A stretch of 39,596 bases of DNA, from IMG/VR virus record IMGVR_UViG_2721755756_000002; one strand, written 5' to 3'. Below the pieces are notes generated by a model. The model saw only the letters and a program-made list of their open reading frames with translations. It was not told the DNA's origin and did no database searches. Below are positions 3,294-13,760 of this stretch, in pieces. Position 1 is the first letter of the stretch; the number at the start of each line of letters is the position of its first letter. The DNA comes from a virus (lineage: Duplodnaviria; Heunggongvirae; Uroviricota; Caudoviricetes). The translations under genes and the position numbers were made by a program.

Positions 3294-3624
3294 GAACACA
3301 ATGTCACGCAAGGCGGTGATTCATAAACTGCTTGAGATAAAGCAAAGTTTAGGCCTTCCACTGAGCAAACAAAAGGCGATTGACAAGTCGATAACTGATG
3401 TTAATTACAGGATTGCGGATGATTGCCTTAAAAAAGAATTTCCGCTTGCCACATTTATCAATCATGGTGGTGCACCACATGAAATTAAAAATGAAATGGT
3501 TGAAATGTATGTATGCCCTGCATGTGGCAACACAATCCGTGCGGTGGTATTTAATGGTTTATTACAGAGACCATTTCCAAAATACTGTTCTGAGTGCGGA
3601 AAGGCATTAAAAGCTCCATCGTAG
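3286..3624 (+). CDS. Zinc-ribbon phage protein
   Basis: CPACG...CSECG; likely start ATG 3286 overlapping the upstream stop. Confidence 0.7.
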   Translation: MSRNTMSRKAVIHKLLEIKQSLGLPLSKQKAIDKSITDVNYRIADDCLKKEFPLATFINHGGAPHEIKNEMVEMYVCPACGNTIRAVVFNGLLQRPFPKYCSECGKALKAPS

Positions 3625-3711
3625 GAGTAATAAAAAAAGGACTGCCCCTCGCAAAAGCAGTCAAGAAACAATGGATAACCTATTGCTAATTATAGCATAG
3701 GAGGAAAACAA

Positions 3712-4170
3712 ATGGTAGAGATAACGACAGAAGAAATTGGCTACATGAAAAAAATCTTAGAGTGCTATTACTTTGCACAGGATCAGCAGCAAAAAGAATT
3801 AAGACATGCCCTTGAACTGCAAATTCTTCTTGAACAAGAATGCAAAGTATCCGGTATGCCTTATGATAGCTATGGGAACGGGTGCTCGGTGAGCTTCCCA
3901 GAAGGCTCATATTTGCAACAATTGAGTATCGAAATCGCAACTCATGATGTTGATGCTAAACGCTGGATGCAAAAGTTTAAAGGTCTGGACAAGACACACA
4001 AAATAAACTATCGCCTTAACCGGCTTCCAAAAGACCAGAAAGAAACTTTACTGAGCGTATACCGCCGTGGTATCAGCGTGTACAAGCTTGCAGAGAAGGC
4101 TGGAATAAGCACTCAGGCATATCATGATCGTATCAATACAGCAATCCGGCATATGCTGGAAGTAGAATAG
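3712..4170 (+). CDS. ArpU/RinA-like late transcriptional activator (C-terminal sigma-region-4-like HTH)
   Basis: AGGAGG RBS; C-terminal LNRLPKDQKETL...ISVYKLAEKAGISTQAYHDRINTA HTH; last gene before the packaging region. Confidence 0.7.
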   Translation: MVEITTEEIGYMKKILECYYFAQDQQQKELRHALELQILLEQECKVSGMPYDSYGNGCSVSFPEGSYLQQLSIEIATHDVDAKRWMQKFKGLDKTHKINYRLNRLPKDQKETLLSVYRRGISVYKLAEKAGISTQAYHDRINTAIRHMLEVE

Positions 4171-4553
4171 AGAATCAAATAATCTGAATAGAGAAAGTAG
4201 GCTAGGTGACTGGTCTGCTTTCTTGTACAAATTTTTCAGGAAATTTTCGCTGTTGCGTGGCAGGCCGGAACAGTTTTTACCTATTACACCCCCTTTTCTT
4301 CACCGCATAGGGGGTACACACATATTTTCCAAAAACCCTTTATTTAAGGCGTTTTTCGTCATTTTGAAAATGCGAAAGTTCGTGAAAAGTTGTTGACTGG
4401 ATAGCATAATGTAGGTGCAAGGCAGGAGATACCAAACCAATGACCACGAATCATACATCTGTCTTGCATCATCCAGAAGGTGGCAGAAAATCCTTAGTAT
4501 AAAGCCGTTACAAAATCCCGGGACGTGCGGACATTGTACAAGGAGGTGATGCC

Positions 4554-6812: not shown

Positions 6813-6841
6813 TTGACAAATCTTCAAAATTGTGTTATTCT
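6813..6841 (+). promoter_or_regulatory. SigA-type promoter
   Basis: TTGACA (6813-6818), 17-bp spacer, TG-n-TATTCT (6836-6841). Confidence 0.65.
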
Positions 6842-6858
6842 TTGGCTAAGTTATAAAA

Positions 6859-6888
6859 GGCAGTGCTCTTGTGAGTGCTGCTTTTTTT
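6859..6888 (+). terminator. Intrinsic terminator just downstream of the promoter
   Basis: GGCAGTGCTC-TTGT-GAGTGCTGCT followed by a T-tract. Confidence 0.7.
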
Positions 6889-7066: not shown

Positions 7067-7816
7067 ATGGAGAAGCACTACAAAGGGTTTTACCAGTATT
7101 GCAAAGGCAGAGCGTTGAAGGATATTGCCAAGGATTTAAACACCACTGAGGGTACTGTTAAAAGCTGGATGACTCGGTACAACTGGGTTGATAAACGTAA
7201 CTGCTGTAGGGCAGAGGATGGATCGGTGGATCTGGAAAAAGCCAGAGGATTCCTTAAGGGGAAAGGTAATGTGGAGCCAGTGCATAGATGGGAAGCTGTG
7301 GAAGAAGACCAAGGCAAGAAGAACCTTAACGACATGTTAGCAGAATCACCTCATGATGATGATTTCAAGCTGTTTGTACAACAGACATTAACTAATTCAG
7401 TACGTAGTCTAGGAGTATCTAAAGCTACTACAGATTATGAATGCCAGTTGCGTATAGTAGAGTATTTTAAAACATGTATTCATGATGGTTATATACCAAC
7501 AATGGAGGGATTATGGCTATGTTTAGGTATTGGACAAACCTGTTTCTATGACTGGTGCAACGGAAAATCGGGAACAGTTCGTGCGGAGCTATTACAAAAT
7601 GCAAAACTTTGTATTCACGAGTTCAACACACAGCTAGCGATTGCGGGTCGTATGGACAAGGTTTTATACATGTTTATTTCCAAAAACCGGCAAGACATGA
7701 AAGACCAAGTGGACACCGTAGTAACTCACAACAACGTGCTTGGCAGCACAGCAGACAAAAACGAGATAGCAAGCCGTATAGCTGAGCAAGCTGACAATCT
7801 GCCGGAAGATGGCTGA
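7067..7816 (+). CDS. terS: Terminase small subunit
   Basis: N-terminal HTH (LKDIAKDLNTTEGTVKSWMTRYNW) typical of Firmicute TerS; IPTMEGLWLCLGI...FYDW segment like P22 gp3-type TerS; GAGGTGA RBS. Confidence 0.75.
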   Translation: MEKHYKGFYQYCKGRALKDIAKDLNTTEGTVKSWMTRYNWVDKRNCCRAEDGSVDLEKARGFLKGKGNVEPVHRWEAVEEDQGKKNLNDMLAESPHDDDFKLFVQQTLTNSVRSLGVSKATTDYECQLRIVEYFKTCIHDGYIPTMEGLWLCLGIGQTCFYDWCNGKSGTVRAELLQNAKLCIHEFNTQLAIAGRMDKVLYMFISKNRQDMKDQVDTVVTHNNVLGSTADKNEIASRIAEQADNLPEDG

Positions 7817-8206
7817 TAAATGGCAGAAAAGAGCCGAATGTTAATACATCCTTAACACAAAACACGATAAATAAAGGCTTTATAACTGTTTTTGTTAGCT
7901 TATATGCCTTGGTTTGTTAGCTTATAAAGGCTACTTGTTAACATGCTGCATCCGGTTCTGTGGTAGCTTGCTTCATGGTTCAATTCAGTTGATCCAATGG
8001 CATGACCCCACCCCCTCCCTATAGGGCAGATCGCATATACCCCCTTCTCAGTCCCACCACCAATTTTTTTGTAAAAAGGCGCATACTTTTCTCTCCATTT
8101 TAGCCCTTAAAATCTCCCATTTGAGACCTACTTGGTGTATACTTAAAACAGCAGGAAAAAGGTGGTAAATTGCATACACGACTATGCATACCGGTGGGAG
8201 GTAATT

Positions 8207-8851
8207 ATGAGTATAAAAGAATTAATATCTACTGTCATTGTGAGTGCTGGAGGTGTAGGATTTATTTTATGGTTTGCAGCAAAGTCTATTGCTAAATCTT
8301 CTTTTGATAGGTACATGCAGAAAGTGAAGAATGATTATGATAAGGAATTAGCAGGCATTAAGCACTCTTATGAATCTGAATTAGTTTTACTGAAAGCAAA
8401 ATTTGAGTCAATTACTTATATATCAAAAAAGCAATTTGAAAAAGAATTAACTATTTATCAAGAAATTTGGCAAAGTGTTGCTGAATTGATTTGCTTAATT
8501 GAGAATCCGTCATATGATGAAGTAGTTGGACATAGTGAAGTTTTTATGTCAGACTATTTTGGAGAAGAATTCAATAGATATTATTCATCTTTTATTACTT
8601 CATTTACTAAATATGAGCCATTTTTAAATGATGATATCTTAACACTCTTTAAAAATTTCAAAGAAATCGTTTCTGATTATAAAAAAGAATTGAATACAAC
8701 TATTTGGAATGGCGAAATAAATGGTGAACCACTAACAACTGAGGATGTAAAGTATTTTAATAATATTGCACCTGGAGAAATAAAAAAAGAGGCAAATGCT
8801 CTACAAATGAAGATAAGAGAATACTTACAATCCTTAAAAGTAGAATTGTGA
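8207..8851 (+). CDS. AT-rich moron: N-terminal transmembrane helix plus coiled coil, unknown function
   Basis: GGGAGG RBS before ATG 8207; hydrophobic ISTVIVSAGGVGFILWFAA; helical remainder; visibly AT-richer codons. Confidence 0.8.
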   Translation: MSIKELISTVIVSAGGVGFILWFAAKSIAKSSFDRYMQKVKNDYDKELAGIKHSYESELVLLKAKFESITYISKKQFEKELTIYQEIWQSVAELICLIENPSYDEVVGHSEVFMSDYFGEEFNRYYSSFITSFTKYEPFLNDDILTLFKNFKEIVSDYKKELNTTIWNGEINGEPLTTEDVKYFNNIAPGEIKKEANALQMKIREYLQSLKVEL

Positions 8852-8860
8852 TGCAATATT

Positions 8861-9480
8861 ATGTTTGAAAAGCGGGAACACTGGCTCACCGGTGATGCGG
8901 TGGGTGACGAAGCGTTAAGTGTTGGTGTACAAGAGGCGGTAAGGTACACGTTAGGCCTTTGATTGCGGGAGCTGCATTAGTGCCAACATAGCGGCCAAAG
9001 CGCTGATGGTAGGCTGAACACCTCTCTTCGAAGTGTCCCACTCAGCCTTGTATATGGCTTAGCTTGGTGTCTGGAAATCTTCCGGAGGTCATGTTGTCGG
9101 AGATAAATACATTCCATTGATCCACAACGCCCAAGTACACAGTCATGGAAGCTGTGTATGTTTGTTTGGTAACAGCGATAAGGAATCCTACGGGACTTAT
9201 CTGCGGCCGTGGCGGCAGGCTGAAGACCGTTGCTCTGGAGTGTATGCTGAACGCTATCCCCTCTACGGCAGGAGGAAAAGCCAATTATAAAGCACATAGA
9301 AGCCGCCCGTTATATGGGAACCGGTTGTACATGTGCTTTTCTATTTGCTCAATTTGATAGATTCCATAACCTCGGCATAAGGGGAATCGCTTACTGAAAC
9401 CGGATGCCAAAGACGATAGCAGACAGTCACCGGCTTAAAATCTGCACATACACGGAAAAAGGGAGAGAACCTCCCTTTAT
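8861..9480 (+). ncRNA. Large structured ncRNA, ROOL-like (GOLLD or a new class not excluded)
   Basis: About 620 nt, GC-richer than its flanks, no RBS-supported ORF. Many helices (e.g. 8925-30/8944-49, 9011-17/9042-48, 9136-42/9152-58, 9177-82/9196-9201 with a cUACGg loop, 9289-97/9331-39, 9458-65/9471-78). Abuts a tRNA cluster in a prophage. Ends are approximate. Confidence 0.6.
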
Positions 9481-9554
9481 ATACCTCTGGTGTAAAGGAA
9501 ACATAACGGTCTCCAAAACCGTTGCTCTCAGTTCGATTCTGAGGAGGTATGCCA
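9481..9554 (+). tRNA. tRNA-Trp (CCA)
   Basis: ATACCTC/GAGGTAT acceptor, ACGGT-CTCCAAA-ACCGT anticodon arm, CTCAG-TTCGATT-CTGAG T arm, G73 and encoded CCA. Confidence 0.92.
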
Positions 9555-9558
9555 ATAT

Positions 9559-9632
9559 TTCCGATTAGCCAAATGGAAAGGCAATGGACTTTGAATCCAT
9601 GAGTTCTGGTTCGACCCCAGAATCGGAAACCA
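9559..9632 (+). tRNA. tRNA-Gln (TTG)
   Basis: TTCCGAT/ATCGGAA acceptor, ATGGA-CTTTGAA-TCCAT anticodon arm, TCTGG-TTCGACC-CCAGA T arm, encoded CCA. Confidence 0.92.
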
Positions 9633-9890
9633 TTTAACACTTCTGAGCGGTTGTATTTGAGATTAAAGTAGCCAAGCATCAGATAGGCTTGCTTAAATAC
9701 GTAGAACGATACCACGCTCATTCGTATACACGGTTTCACTCAAATAATAGAGTGATGTGGCAGTACATGGTTTTTCTCCTCCAACTTGCGTAAATATACC
9801 TCCCTTTCTGTTTTTATCCTTTATGTTTATGTACTGCAAAATACAAAAAAGCTGCACAGTACCTATCGCCTTGTCTGTGCGGCAACATAT

Positions 9891-9964
9891 AGCGGAGTAG
9901 AGCAGTAGCAGCTCGCCACCCTCATAAGGTGGGGCGTGGGTGCAATTCCCGCCTCTCGCAACCA
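9891..9964 (+). tRNA. Atypical tRNA-Met (CAT), initiator-like
   Basis: GAGC/GCTC D-stem, CCACC-CTCATAA-GGTGG anticodon arm, GTGGG-TGCAATT-CCCGC T arm, ACCA end; 1-nt bulge in the acceptor stem. Confidence 0.75.
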
Positions 9965-9986
9965 ACAAATGAAAGCTGGTGATTCA

Positions 9987-10169
9987 ATGGTTAAAGAAAG
10001 TATAGTGAATGGGTTCTTTTGGCTTATGTCTGTATCAGAAGCGATGATGATTATAAAACCTTGGATTTATGGATTATTTTCTTGTATTATACCATTTTTA
10101 TTAGTTTCACTTTGTATATTTGCAAAGTACCGGTTCTTGTTTTGGATTTATAAAAATTTGCCATGGTAA
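9987..10169 (+). CDS. Small membrane protein
   Basis: GGTGA RBS before ATG 9987; two hydrophobic segments. Confidence 0.6.
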   Translation: MVKESIVNGFFWLMSVSEAMMIIKPWIYGLFSCIIPFLLVSLCIFAKYRFLFWIYKNLPW

Positions 10170-10181
10170 AGGAGGGATTAC

Positions 10182-10481
10182 ATGAGAGTAAGAAAGAAAC
10201 CAGTCATAGTGGAAGCGTTGCAGTGGACAGGCAAAAATCATAGAGAAATGTTTGATTTCTTGACAGGTTATCAAAAACAAAATGAATTTATGACAGCTTA
10301 CGGAGATACATTTTATATCGATCACGATAAAGTAAAGGGTGGGCTAATCATTAGAACTCTGGAAGGTGAGCATATCGCTGAAATCGGTGATTACATCATT
10401 AAGGGAGTGCACGGGGAATTTTATCCTTGCAAGTCGGATATTTTCGAGGAAACGTACAAAATAATCAATGAAGACGATTGA
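10182..10481 (+). CDS. Conserved phage protein (RKKPV..EA.QW / TLEG...GDYII.GV.GEFYPCK family)
   Basis: AAGGAGG RBS; widely recurring phage protein motif. Confidence 0.85.
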   Translation: MRVRKKPVIVEALQWTGKNHREMFDFLTGYQKQNEFMTAYGDTFYIDHDKVKGGLIIRTLEGEHIAEIGDYIIKGVHGEFYPCKSDIFEETYKIINEDD

Positions 10482-12105
10482 GTTAATCAACATCCTTCTT
10501 GAACAGCGTGATTGCAAAAGATACCAAAATCTGGATGATTTATTTGAACTTCTACGAATATATGAGCCTGAAGACATGGTGCATGCACACCGGCTTAATA
10601 AGGTAGTTCGTGATGTGTCTGTAAAGCAATCAAAAAATGCATTTTTACCGATATCAGAGAGAGAACGTTTCATACAACTGTATAAGCGTTCTCTTTTATT
10701 TGATGCGCCGATAGATTTTGATGCGTATTTACTTTATGTGGAATTTGATCGGGACCCAGATAAACGATTCTATTTACCACGGCGAAAGATTCTAAAGGAC
10801 AAGCTTATTCGGCACCTTCAGGACTTAGCCGATGATGTGATAGACATATTAACGATTTCAATGCCACCAGGTACCGGTAAATCAACTGCCGGTATTTTCT
10901 TTTTATCATGGCTGATGGGTAGGAATCCAGAAAAATGTAATCTAGCATCTGGTCATGCTGACGGATTGACCAGAGGTTTTTATGATGGTGTTATGTCTAT
11001 AATCACTGACCCCGAGTATCTTTGGCACGATGTGTTTCCCGATGTTCAATTGGTCAATAAAAGTGCAAAATATGAAACACTTGATTTGGATAAGGTTAAG
11101 CGATTTCCTTCGTTAACTTGTAGAGCTATAGATGGATCCTTGACTGGAGCAACACGATGTGAAGGAATACTTTATGTCGATGACCTTGTATCCGGTATCG
11201 AGGAAGCTTTGTCTATTGATCGTATGGACAGGCTGTGGATGAAGTACTTTAATGATTTGAAGTCGCGTAAGAAAATGAAGTGTAAAGAACTCCATATTGC
11301 TACACGATGGTCAGTACATGATCCTATCGGTCGGCTTGAAAGAGATAACGAAAATAATCCTAGAGCAAGATTTATTTGCATTCCAGCTCTGGATGAAAAT
11401 GGTGAATCCAACTTCAATTATGATTTTGGCGTAGGCTTTGATACTGAGTATTTCAAAAACATTGAAAAAGATATGGATGAAGTATCATTCTTGGCGCTTT
11501 ATATGAATCAGCCTATTGAGCGTGAAGGACTACTGTTTCCGGAAAAAGAACTCCGGTATTTTAATGGGATACTTCCGCAGATTAAACCAGATTGTATATA
11601 TTCTGCATCTGACGTTGCGTGGGGCGGTGGAGATAGCTATTCACAACCATTTGGTTATCAGTTTGGTGAAGATGTATACATCCCTGATTGGATATTCGAT
11701 AAAGGTGATAAGACAGTGACAAGACCAAGAGTAATTGGCAAAATGTCGCTACATAAACCACATCTATCAAAATTTGAAGCAAACAATGGTGGTCATGAGT
11801 ATTCAGATAAAGTGGATGAAGAATTGAGGAAGATTGGCGTTCATATGAATATCACATCCGAAGTGTCTCCGAGCAATAAGTCAAAGTTATCAAGGATAAT
11901 CAGATGGGCACCGGATATAAAACGCTTCATCTTTGTTGATAAAGCCAATAGAAGTAAGGAATACGACAAGGCAATGAAAGAATTGACAACGTTTCTTCAG
12001 ACAGGGAAATCACCACATGATGATTCTCCGGATAGCCTCGCTATGCTGGCAGAATTGATATATGAAGGTGGAACAAGTTATGAAATCGGTGATAGGCCGT
12101 TTTAG
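10468..12105 (+). CDS. terL: Terminase large subunit
   Basis: Walker A MPPGTGKST, Walker B YVDD, C-terminal nuclease motifs DVAWGGGD and HDDSPDSL. Confidence 0.95.
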   Translation: MKTIELINILLEQRDCKRYQNLDDLFELLRIYEPEDMVHAHRLNKVVRDVSVKQSKNAFLPISERERFIQLYKRSLLFDAPIDFDAYLLYVEFDRDPDKRFYLPRRKILKDKLIRHLQDLADDVIDILTISMPPGTGKSTAGIFFLSWLMGRNPEKCNLASGHADGLTRGFYDGVMSIITDPEYLWHDVFPDVQLVNKSAKYETLDLDKVKRFPSLTCRAIDGSLTGATRCEGILYVDDLVSGIEEALSIDRMDRLWMKYFNDLKSRKKMKCKELHIATRWSVHDPIGRLERDNENNPRARFICIPALDENGESNFNYDFGVGFDTEYFKNIEKDMDEVSFLALYMNQPIEREGLLFPEKELRYFNGILPQIKPDCIYSASDVAWGGGDSYSQPFGYQFGEDVYIPDWIFDKGDKTVTRPRVIGKMSLHKPHLSKFEANNGGHEYSDKVDEELRKIGVHMNITSEVSPSNKSKLSRIIRWAPDIKRFIFVDKANRSKEYDKAMKELTTFLQTGKSPHDDSPDSLAMLAELIYEGGTSYEIGDRPF

Positions 12106-12259: not shown

Positions 12260-12305
12260 GCAGGCACTATATGTGCTTTTTTATTACCAGAAGGGAGGTG
12301 GATGG

Positions 12306-13760
12306 ATGATAGAGATAGAATTGTTTGGCAGACAGGAAATATTCATACCACGGCAAGAAATAACGGAAGAAACACTTCCTAAAATATTGGCAAGGGCAAT
12401 GGCTATCCATTCTACCAATGCAGCGCAGATACATTATCTTTGGAATTACTATAAGGGAAAGCAACCTATTCTTGAAAGAGTAAAGAGAGTACGACCCGAA
12501 ATATGCAATAAGCTAGTAATTAATCATGCATATGAAATCATGAATTTCTACATGGGATATGTTTTTGGTGATCCTATCCAGTATGTGCAGCGAGGAATAC
12601 ACGGTGCAAAAGAAGGATACTCTGATGTAAACAATGTATCTATGCTTAATGAGCTTATGGCTGATGACGATAAAGCTTCAAAAGACCGGGAGTTAGGTGA
12701 ATGGATGCTTGCATGCGGTGTCGGATACCGGATGACTATGCCGGCAGTTGATGACGATGCAGTATTTGAAACTGAGATATTAGACCCTAGAGTTACATTC
12801 GTTGTGAAGGATACTGGCTTTGGTAAGAAGCCTTGGCTTTGTGTGACCTTCAATAAAAAGATGAACAAAGGATTTGAGTATTATGAAATGTTCGGATATA
12901 CCAAGGATGTGTTCTTCACCTGTGAGGAATTCAATTCTACTTATCGAAAATACAGAATAGAAAACCATGTTTTGAATCAATTGCCTATTGCTGAATATCC
13001 ATTAGGTACTGTCAGGCTTGGCGCTTTTGAACCGGTGCACTCTATTTTGAATGCTATTAATAATGTGGAATCAAATAGAAGTGATGGTATTGAACAAAAA
13101 ATTCAAAGTTTCTTAAAATTTTTAAATTGTGATATCGTCCCAGAAAAATTCGATGAATTCAGGGAAAAAGGCATGATAAAGATTAAGGTTCCGCAAGGCA
13201 GTAGAGGCGATGTTGAATATGTAGAGGTTGATTTAAACCAAACGGATTCACAAATATATGTAGATTCCTTATACCAAAAAATGCTGCAAATCGCAGGCGT
13301 GCCAGATAGAAATGCTTCCGCCGGTGGAAATACCGGACAAGCACTTATTATCGGGCAGGGATGGTCTAACGCCGAAGCTAGAGCGAAATCCATAGAACTT
13401 TCATTCAAGCGTAGTGAAAAATTGTTTTTGAAGATGGTGCTGAGAATTATTCAGGATACGTTGAATGTAGAGCCACAATTAAGGCAGCTGAAACTTTGGG
13501 ATATTGATATCAAGTTCACACGAAATAAAACGGACAGCATACTAGTTAAGGCACAAGCGTTACTTAATCTGTTGGAAGCAGGAGTGCATCCACGTATTGC
13601 ATTTACTATTTGTGGACTGTTTAACGACCCAGAGCAGGCGTATGTTGATTCACAGCCATACTTAAATGCCAAATGGCTAAGAGATTTGAAGACGAATGTA
13701 CAAGAAGGCGATATCAAAAATGAAAATGATGTCTTGCCAAAATTACCGGTTACCGGATAA
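12306..13760 (+). CDS. Portal protein (SPP1 gp6-like)
   Basis: GGGAGGTG RBS; YYKGKQPI...NKLVINHAYEIMNFYMGYVFGDPIQY; follows terL. Confidence 0.92.
   Translation: MIEIELFGRQEIFIPRQEITEETLPKILARAMAIHSTNAAQIHYLWNYYKGKQPILERVKRVRPEICNKLVINHAYEIMNFYMGYVFGDPIQYVQRGIHGAKEGYSDVNNVSMLNELMADDDKASKDRELGEWMLACGVGYRMTMPAVDDDAVFETEILDPRVTFVVKDTGFGKKPWLCVTFNKKMNKGFEYYEMFGYTKDVFFTCEEFNSTYRKYRIENHVLNQLPIAEYPLGTVRLGAFEPVHSILNAINNVESNRSDGIEQKIQSFLKFLNCDIVPEKFDEFREKGMIKIKVPQGSRGDVEYVEVDLNQTDSQIYVDSLYQKMLQIAGVPDRNASAGGNTGQALIIGQGWSNAEARAKSIELSFKRSEKLFLKMVLRIIQDTLNVEPQLRQLKLWDIDIKFTRNKTDSILVKAQALLNLLEAGVHPRIAFTICGLFNDPEQAYVDSQPYLNAKWLRDLKTNVQEGDIKNENDVLPKLPVTG

Follow-up and report, generated by a model that had tools for sequence, protein, structure and literature searches.

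Comparison with related phages supports the view that a conserved locus for structured, non-coding RNA lies between terS and terL in the window (the whole stretch of DNA analysed here, 39,596 nt, virus record IMGVR_UViG_2721755756_000002 of the Caudoviricetes), and no Rfam family covers the modules of this locus. Its 610 nt appear to be pieced together from four or more separable modules, denoted A, B, E1 and E2 (Table 1). We regard it as probable, though by a long way not certain, that the locus is a cassette with its own promoter and leaky terminators, made up of separable structured RNA modules and lodged in an accessory slot between the two terminase genes.

A non-coding stretch beside three tRNA genes

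All genes of the region, which is a prophage, point rightward. The host was taken to be C. innocuum I46 of the OMM12 mouse consortium, with the inducible prophages Amboise and Maintenon, in agreement with published work (PMC10197239); strain and prophages are used in the laboratory. The original prediction had placed one ornate RNA of about 620 nt at 8861-9480, inserted with tRNAs between terS and terL and ending immediately before tRNA-Trp. This setting was borne out: the terS-like gene, terL and three tRNA genes are all in place in a Firmicute prophage, and the gap to tRNA-Trp is 2 nt. The stretch itself is also real, although it does not start at 8861, as homology with relatives runs from 8869 to about 9478.

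The claim of a GC-richer sequence with no supported ORF held as well. The GC content is 0.45-0.52 across 8850-9500 compared with about 0.26 in the upstream ORF, and a check for conserved overlapping ORFs found only short ones within 8869-9478, none of them both substantial and conserved. The longest, of 106 aa (8977-9297, minus strand), matched just two database proteins, each over 30% of the ORF. Variants of the element are distinguished by indels of 1, 2, 8 and 12 nt. Coding potential is unlikely, and the stretch is non-coding.

Table 1. Features of the terS-terL region in the window.
Feature	Position	Strand	Remarks
Strong promoter TTGACA-17-TATTCT with upstream TG	6813-6841		10/12 matches; about 180 nt before terS
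14-bp terminator hairpin with U-tract	6855-6886		within about 15 nt of the 6813-6841 promoter
terS-like gene	7067-7816	+	Pfam Phage_terminase, Terminase_5, GP3_package
AT-rich ORF, no assigned function	8162-8851	+	just upstream of RNA stretch
Sigma-70-like promoter TTAAAA-17-TATTAT	8834-8862	+	9/12 matches; ends 6 nt before RNA start
Non-coding RNA stretch	8869-9478	+	610 nt, no gene
Module A	8869-9001	+	relatives are homologous from 8869 onward
A: conserved 5' strand AAAGCGGGAACAC	8869-8881	+	
A: hairpin	8884-8905	+	
A: hairpin GUGUAC/GUACAC	8925-8949	+	loop AAGAGGCGGUAAG
A: hairpin UGCGG/CUGCA	8964-8976	+	
Module B	9002-9170	+	absent from L029 and L028; nearly identical in paralogue
B: helix	9011-9021/9033-9049	+	
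B: helix	9063-9068/9131-9135	+	
B: hairpin	9070-9086	+	
B: helix	9092-9100/9122-9129	+	
B: candidate loop-loop pairing UUCCAU/AUGGAA	9112-9117 with 9145-9150	+	
B: hairpin, then GUUUGUUUGG	9136-9158	+	scanner flags 9135-9159 as terminator-like
Module E1	9171-9348	+	72% identical copy in L029, L032, L033
E1: P1 hairpin GCGAUAAG...CUUAUCUGC	9175-9204	+	
E1: hairpin GGCGG/CCGUU	9211-9231	+	
E1: hairpin	9239-9255	+	
E1: hairpin CCUC/GAGG	9260-9275	+	
E1: P5, long three-tier hairpin, then UCUAUUU	9289-9339	+	
Module E2	9349-9478	+	
E2: hairpin GAUUCC/GGAAUC	9360-9388	+	
E2: helix P7 CCGG/CCGG	9400-9403 with 9430-9433	+	
E2: pseudoknot candidate (P8) GCAGA/UCUGC	9419-9423 with 9441-9445	+	
E2: terminal hairpin GGGAG/CUCCC, then UUU	9461-9475	+	
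tRNA-Trp (CCA)	9481-9554	+	starts 2 nt past end of RNA stretch
tRNA-Gln (UUG)	9559-9632	+	abuts RNA stretch together with tRNA-Trp
tRNA-Met (CAU)	9892-9960	+	41 bits against tRNA model
99-aa ORF	between tRNA-Met and terL		
terL	10468-12105	+	
Portal gene	12273-13760	+	

Several observations concern the surroundings of the element. tRNA-Met scores below both neighbouring tRNAs, and one non-standard acceptor-stem pair is marked in its alignment. The gene-free 260 nt between tRNA-Gln and tRNA-Met (9633-9891) are 97-99% conserved among close relatives and have a counterpart, conserved at 68-78%, just 5' of tRNA-Met in contigs L028, L029 and L032-L034; in L021 the segment is placed after tRNA-Tyr. 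The segment may be a further RNA module, or a promoter region for tRNA-Met and terL. The gene-free 7817-8161, 3' of terS, has a C-rich motif, CCCCACCCCCTCCCTATAGGGCAGATCGCATATACCCCCTTCTCAGTCCCACCACC, at about 8006-8060, which is 74-84% conserved in L028-L034 and has a similar motif in the long leader of L049-type phages. Its role may be that of a packaging site or of a further RNA element.

Relatives and limits of the element

Ten distinct close variants were obtained from IMG/VR, JGI/ENA metagenomes and Logan assemblies by exact-motif scans, a spurious-ORF look-up and terL-anchored look-ups. The exact-motif scans often returned just the same four IMG/VR contigs, and some of their matches were discarded as chance, namely L012-L015 (high-GC coding DNA) and L016 and L018 (17-mers). 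Relatives of terL at 81-87% identity were accompanied by gene-free terS-terL gaps of 570-1360 nt with diverged copies, and three diverged lineage types, those of L029, L028 and L030, were distinguished besides the ten close variants.

The upstream genes differ among the relatives, yet all converge on the conserved 5' strand of module A, with its AAAGC start, at 8869. The 3' boundary was set at the terminal hairpin, at about 9478, because in L021 ORFs, in place of tRNA-Trp and tRNA-Gln, come directly after this hairpin; the same tRNA pair is also found 3' of the element in L002, L004, L005, L006, L020 and L024. Identity among the close variants is 86-93% over the 5' half and 97-99% over the 3' half. 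Since the adjoining tRNAs and terL are equally conserved, the high value of the 3' half reflects how closely related the phages are and not a special constraint.

The window copy is a short form, relatives being 885-896 nt long, and every close variant but the window's has about 290 extra nt inserted at window 9160-9171. This insert (L006:7300-7586) consists of two hairpins and a degenerate tRNA-like element, in which a 7-bp acceptor stem, a D-arm-like stretch and a T-loop (GGTTCAAATCC in L002) are accompanied by about 70 nt replacing the anticodon arm. A tRNA identity of this linker was weakly supported in L002 and unsupported in L006: ARAGORN called a tRNA only in L002, and only when a 30-nt intron was allowed, and the Rfam tRNA model did not recognise the element.

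A paralogue in the same genome is near-identical to window 9011-9165, with 56 of 62 words in common, and shares none of the 29 words of 8866-9010 and 16 of the 113 words of 9171-9480. Since the paralogue-like stretch coincides with the one in which the window departs from its other relatives, the window copy is probably a recombinant with this paralogue. Scans of genome contigs, and a viral scan for the paralogue-type block, returned no matches.

Compensatory changes in the helices

All seven helices listed in the original prediction are present in the sequence. The folding energy of 8852-9480 is no better than chance (z = -0.49 on the plus strand and -0.93 on the minus strand), and for the 3' half alone z = -2.0. 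Folding energy is uninformative here; the structural support comes from comparison with relatives, in which the structure of many helices is conserved via compensatory changes.

For the 5' half, the consensus structure, including the UUCCAU/AUGGAA loop-loop candidate, is paired in 98.3% of cells over ten variants. Double-sided changes were counted at 9 pairs, spread over five separate helices of module B, compared with 4.7 ± 1.4 pairs in column shuffles (1/500), in a set of close variants that are mosaics of a few haplotype blocks and hold few independent compensatory events. Only 0-2 such pairs were left when the partners were slid by 1-3 columns, and the covariation score was 0.106 against 0.069 in shuffles (0/500). 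Many of the 5'-half pairs alternate G-C or A-U with G-U and are compatible with the plus strand alone. The close variants hardly differ in the first 130 nt or in the 3' half, the 3' domain having too little variation for covariation.

When homologues are considered, five of the seven listed helices keep their pairing through changes. GTGTAC/GTACAC becomes GCGTG/CACGC in L029, the AGGCTGA/TCAGCCT and TACACAG/CTGTGTA stems covary, the GATAAG/CTTATC stem (P1) has an A-U to G-C change, and AAAGCACAT/ATGTGCTTT, the outer 9 bp of P5, becomes AAAGYACGT/ACGTGCTTT in L028 and 36 other contigs. The other two are without a double-sided change: GATTCC/GGAATC has a single one-sided compatible change, and the terminal AAAGGGAG/CTCCCTTT stem is invariant while its loops vary.

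In P5, the lineages keep the 9-bp outer stem, in which an A-U pair is swapped for G-C and a C-G pair is changed to U-G; the AGAA internal loop of P5 is also kept, and the inner stems are rewritten (CUG/CAG, CCG/CGG, ACUUC/GGAGU, CUC/GAG). P7 reads CCGG/CCGG in the window, CCGG/CUGG in L021, CCAC/GUGG in L029 and CCUC/GAGG in L030. The UAGCAGA enclosed by P7 can pair with a downstream UCUGC (UCUGU in L029, giving one G-U), and this pairing, P8, is kept; it would form a candidate pseudoknot. The pairs of P7 and P8 were read from an explicit pair table, MAFFT shifting L029 by one column. Every hairpin of module A is rewritten yet paired in L029, L032 and L033: in the L029 type, CUCACCG/CGGUGGG is replaced by UCCAUU/AAUGGA and UGCGG/CUGCA by CGUGG/CUACG, and the GCGUG/CACGC hairpin has a similar loop, GGYGGUA.

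These changes bear on the very unlikely reading in which there is no functional RNA at all, and the stretch is a packaging or recombination site at the level of DNA, or the decayed remnant of tRNAs and terminators in a recombination hotspot. The location between terminase genes and the strongly mosaic region would suit such an origin, as would the degenerate tRNA in the linker of relatives and the possibility that several hairpins are simply terminators. However, the compensatory changes, some of which pass through G-U and so fit one strand only, are evidence that RNA pairing is under selection. No tRNA remnants inside 8869-9480 were detected by the tRNA model or by ARAGORN, and lineages with about 72% identity elsewhere have kept the loops and junctions (the 5' strand of module A, the P1 loop, the AGAA loop of P5 and UAGCAGA).

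Comparison with ROOL, GOLLD and other known families

The original prediction described the stretch as ROOL/GOLLD-like, with a length that fits ROOL best. ROOL and GOLLD are indeed comparable to the element in size and in placement beside phage tRNAs (PMC5737381, PMC12286853), and both assemble into RNA-only homo-oligomeric cages (PMC12286853). Membership in either family found no support in the covariance models. A cmscan of the whole window with the 4227 families of Rfam 15 at the gathering score matched the three tRNAs only; with permissive filters at E ≤ 10, no ROOL, GOLLD or other large RNA was detected in 8600-10100, and the 890-nt form (L006:6950-7900) gave no ROOL or GOLLD match at the same threshold. 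The ROOL model RF03087 (574 positions, gathering score 99.1 bits) run directly on G001, the nearest virus record, gave no match, but control genomes gave none either, so that this run is uninformative alone. The GOLLD model RF02032 (416 positions, gathering score 150 bits) scored five candidates in G001, none at E ≤ 10. A blastn search against 50,697 phage records returned no match. Membership in ROOL or GOLLD was rejected for the short and the long form alike.

Like ROOL, the element is about 600 nt long, lies in a Firmicute prophage beside tRNAs, and has many helices as well as candidate pseudoknots. It differs in matching neither the 574-position model nor any detectable common consensus, and in being modular, whereas ROOL is a single fold with six multistem junctions. 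Two pseudoknot candidates and separable modules were found here, and no covarying long-range helix closing the whole RNA. Like GOLLD, the element is borne by phages or prophages next to tRNA genes, and the long form of its relatives, in contrast to the 610-nt form of the window, combines a 5' part of lower conservation and a well-conserved 3' part, joined by a linker with a tRNA-like element. This is similar to the GOLLD layout of a conserved 3' part, a variable 5' part and sometimes a linker tRNA, but the 3' conservation is that of the flanking genes. Unlike GOLLD, the element has no covariance-model match at E ≤ 10, its parts are found separately in other phages, and it contains internal terminator-like hairpins.

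That the element is a highly divergent true member of ROOL or GOLLD, missed by the Rfam models, is in our opinion extremely improbable. The prophage and tRNA context and the size speak for it, and nothing else does, whereas neither RF03087 nor RF02032 matched at E ≤ 10 under permissive filters on short stretches of both forms; the cmscan runs covered the full Rfam library, which offsets the ROOL run with blank controls. The reservation in the original prediction that a divergent or new class was possible fared better, in that a new class stands in part, although the evidence favours separable modules over a single 620-nt RNA.

Modules alone and recombined in related phages

Comparison of the lineages indicates that the modules are shuffled among related gut phages by recombination. 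The order is A, B, linker, tRNA-like element and E in the L006 type, A, B and E in the window, and A', part of the linker and E' in L029. In L029, L032 and L033, module B is absent, the first part of the linker is kept without the tRNA-like element, and the 3' domain is about 72% identical to that of the window. L028 has only the first 95 nt or so of module A, where a CUCACU/AGUGAG hairpin shows a C-G to U-A swap; directly 3' of this part stands a strong terminator, AGCUGA-CUUGU-UCAGCU followed by U7, and after it an unrelated RNA that ends in a P5-type hairpin. In L030 just the end of the 3' domain (E2) is present, behind two other terminator-ended units, and the same-genome paralogue has B almost exactly and nothing of A. 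A mosaic, whose modules recur alone or recombined and of which three end in terminator-like hairpins, is thus the more probable reading than one ornate RNA of about 620 nt.

As a separate observation on these phages, the cis-regulatory RNA GP20-b (RF03003) lies just 3' of the portal gene in L028 (8299-8362) and L030 (8317-8382), and it was not detected at the corresponding position of the window.

We consider it unlikely that the locus encodes one large ornate RNA of a new class working like GOLLD or ROOL, 610 nt long here and 885-896 nt in relatives, made together with the tRNAs and perhaps assembling into RNA-only multimers. Its length and site beside phage tRNAs match those of ROOL and GOLLD (PMC5737381, PMC12286853), and its domains are GOLLD-like, a 5' half at 86-93% and a 3' half at 97-99% identity having the tRNA-like insert of about 290 nt between them. 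Two pseudoknot or loop-loop candidates are also present, and in L029 the scanner flags the final hairpin only, so that 560 nt there could be one RNA. An obligatory global fold is, however, hard to reconcile with modules that occur alone or recombined in L028, L030, IMG/VR contigs and the paralogue, or with the closure of the L028 part by a strong terminator, and the 3' half is no more conserved than the neighbouring tRNAs and terL. No covarying pairs joining the domains were found. A loop-loop contact of the 5' with the 3' domain, GGCGG/CCGCC, was given up because it is not maintained in L029, and the long-range module A helix GUGUUGGUG/UGCCAACAU is unconfirmed, with 6-7 of its 9 pairs kept there. 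It is distinctly unlikely that the element and its 885-896-nt relatives would constitute a third giant-RNA class of phage tRNA islands, with the domain logic of GOLLD, unrelated sequence and a single, perhaps self-assembling, fold.

Promoter-like sites, terminator-like hairpins and the accessory slot

Promoter-like sites precede the element in three of five upstream contexts, L006 and L028 being without a good match. In L021 the site is TTGCAA-17-TATAAT (10/12) and in L029 the -10 hexamer TAAAAT; each lies 2-6 nt before AAAGC, and the contexts are unrelated. Inside the element the scanner found no promoter-like sites, and thus no separate promoter per module.

Modules B, E1 and E2 each end in a terminator-like hairpin. 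In the window these terminators are weak by consensus: their tails are GUUUGUUUGG, UUUUCUAUUU and UUUAUAU, and the first alone (9135-9159) is flagged by the scanner. A G+C hairpin followed by a U-tract, as expected of an intrinsic terminator, is found at 9135-9159, in P5 and in the terminal hairpin of relatives. A run of U4-6 comes after P5 in each of the four lineages, and one of U4-5 after the terminal hairpin in L021, L026, L029 and L030; the scanner calls this hairpin a terminator in L029 and L030.

The promoter and the terminator hairpin ahead of terS suggest that late transcription in this phage must read through terminators, that is, depend on antitermination, in which case terminator-ended inserts would do the operon no harm. 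In phage lambda, PR'-6S RNA-tR' is a leader-terminator unit read through by antitermination. The arrangement of promoter and terminator just before terS resembles PR' and tR', as does the P1-P5 unit, whose terminal terminator separates a promoter from late or accessory genes in 36 phages. The differences are that the P1-P5 leader is long and structurally conserved, that no Q-like factor or qut-like site was identified, and that P1-P5 in the window is inside the operon and not at its head.

The slot between terS and terL is variable: it holds Tad2-like, Sequestin-family or DUF4406 genes, other tRNAs, or protein genes without RNA or tRNA, and the cassette is absent from L011 and L035. From its gene content it looks like a hotspot of accessory genes, possibly for counter-defence. 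In L030 the slot (3601-4209) has a Tad2-like gene, and in L032 (3561-4116) a Sequestin-family gene beside a DUF4406 gene.

From these results, the following course of events may be proposed for the cassette of separable modules. It would sit with three tRNA genes in the variable slot of a Maintenon-type Clostridium innocuum prophage and be transcribed rightward, most likely from its own sigma-70-type promoter (8834-8862), with a start at about 8869. The polymerase would then meet three successive terminator-like hairpins, at the end of B (about 9160), at P5 (about 9340) and at the terminal hairpin (about 9478), and their use would yield a nested, 5'-co-terminal series of RNAs, about 300, 480 and 610 nt long. 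Transcripts reading past the last hairpin would extend into tRNA-Trp and tRNA-Gln, and their 3' end would be made by RNase P cutting at 9480/9481.

As for function, we suppose that the cassette may be an RNA moron, running as an independent unit from promoter to terminator within a late operon. Phage morons are autonomous promoter-gene-terminator units inserted in late operons. Like them, the cassette has a promoter-like site, terminator-like ends and a slot between late genes that varies among close relatives; the cargo differs, being structured RNA and tRNAs and not a protein gene.

P1 and P5 in other phages

A degenerate P5 pattern retrieved 36 further IMG/VR contigs with one common P5 variant, a fourth lineage, which share with the window only P5 and sometimes P1. 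Many of them have a P1 homologue, GCGGUAAGGAAUCCUAAGCGGACUUACCAGC, about 215 nt upstream of P5; because others have unrelated sequence at this position, P1 and P5 are separable. In these contigs the P1-P5 unit stands at the end of a non-coding leader about 600 nt long, which begins with an extended -10 promoter just after a transcriptional regulator gene (phrog_36; Pfam sigma-70 region 4 match at E = 0.066, below cutoff). P5 with its U4-6 precedes by 10-20 nt the RBS of accessory genes of various kinds; terS and terL come after these genes. Neither tRNAs near these leaders nor Rfam families within them were found. The core beside P5 is invariant in the L063 type, and no covariation is measurable there. 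In the long leader of L070, a tRNA-like 3' half, GGTAGCGCCCTAGAAGTTGGTTCGATTCCAACTGTGCC, which ARAGORN did not call as a tRNA, precedes the P5 motif by about 390-330 nt when read in the orientation of the motif.

Its position in the 36 other phages, taken by itself, suggests that the P1-to-P5 unit may act in cis as a terminator or attenuator. Since P1 and P5 close promoter-to-gene leaders before packaging genes in at least 36 contigs, they are, together with the conserved AGAA internal loop of P5, a candidate conserved transcription-control element in phages of this group. Large non-coding stretches by phage tRNA genes tend to be taken for ROOL or GOLLD; the present case suggests that such a stretch can consist of recombining smaller structured RNA modules outside every Rfam family.
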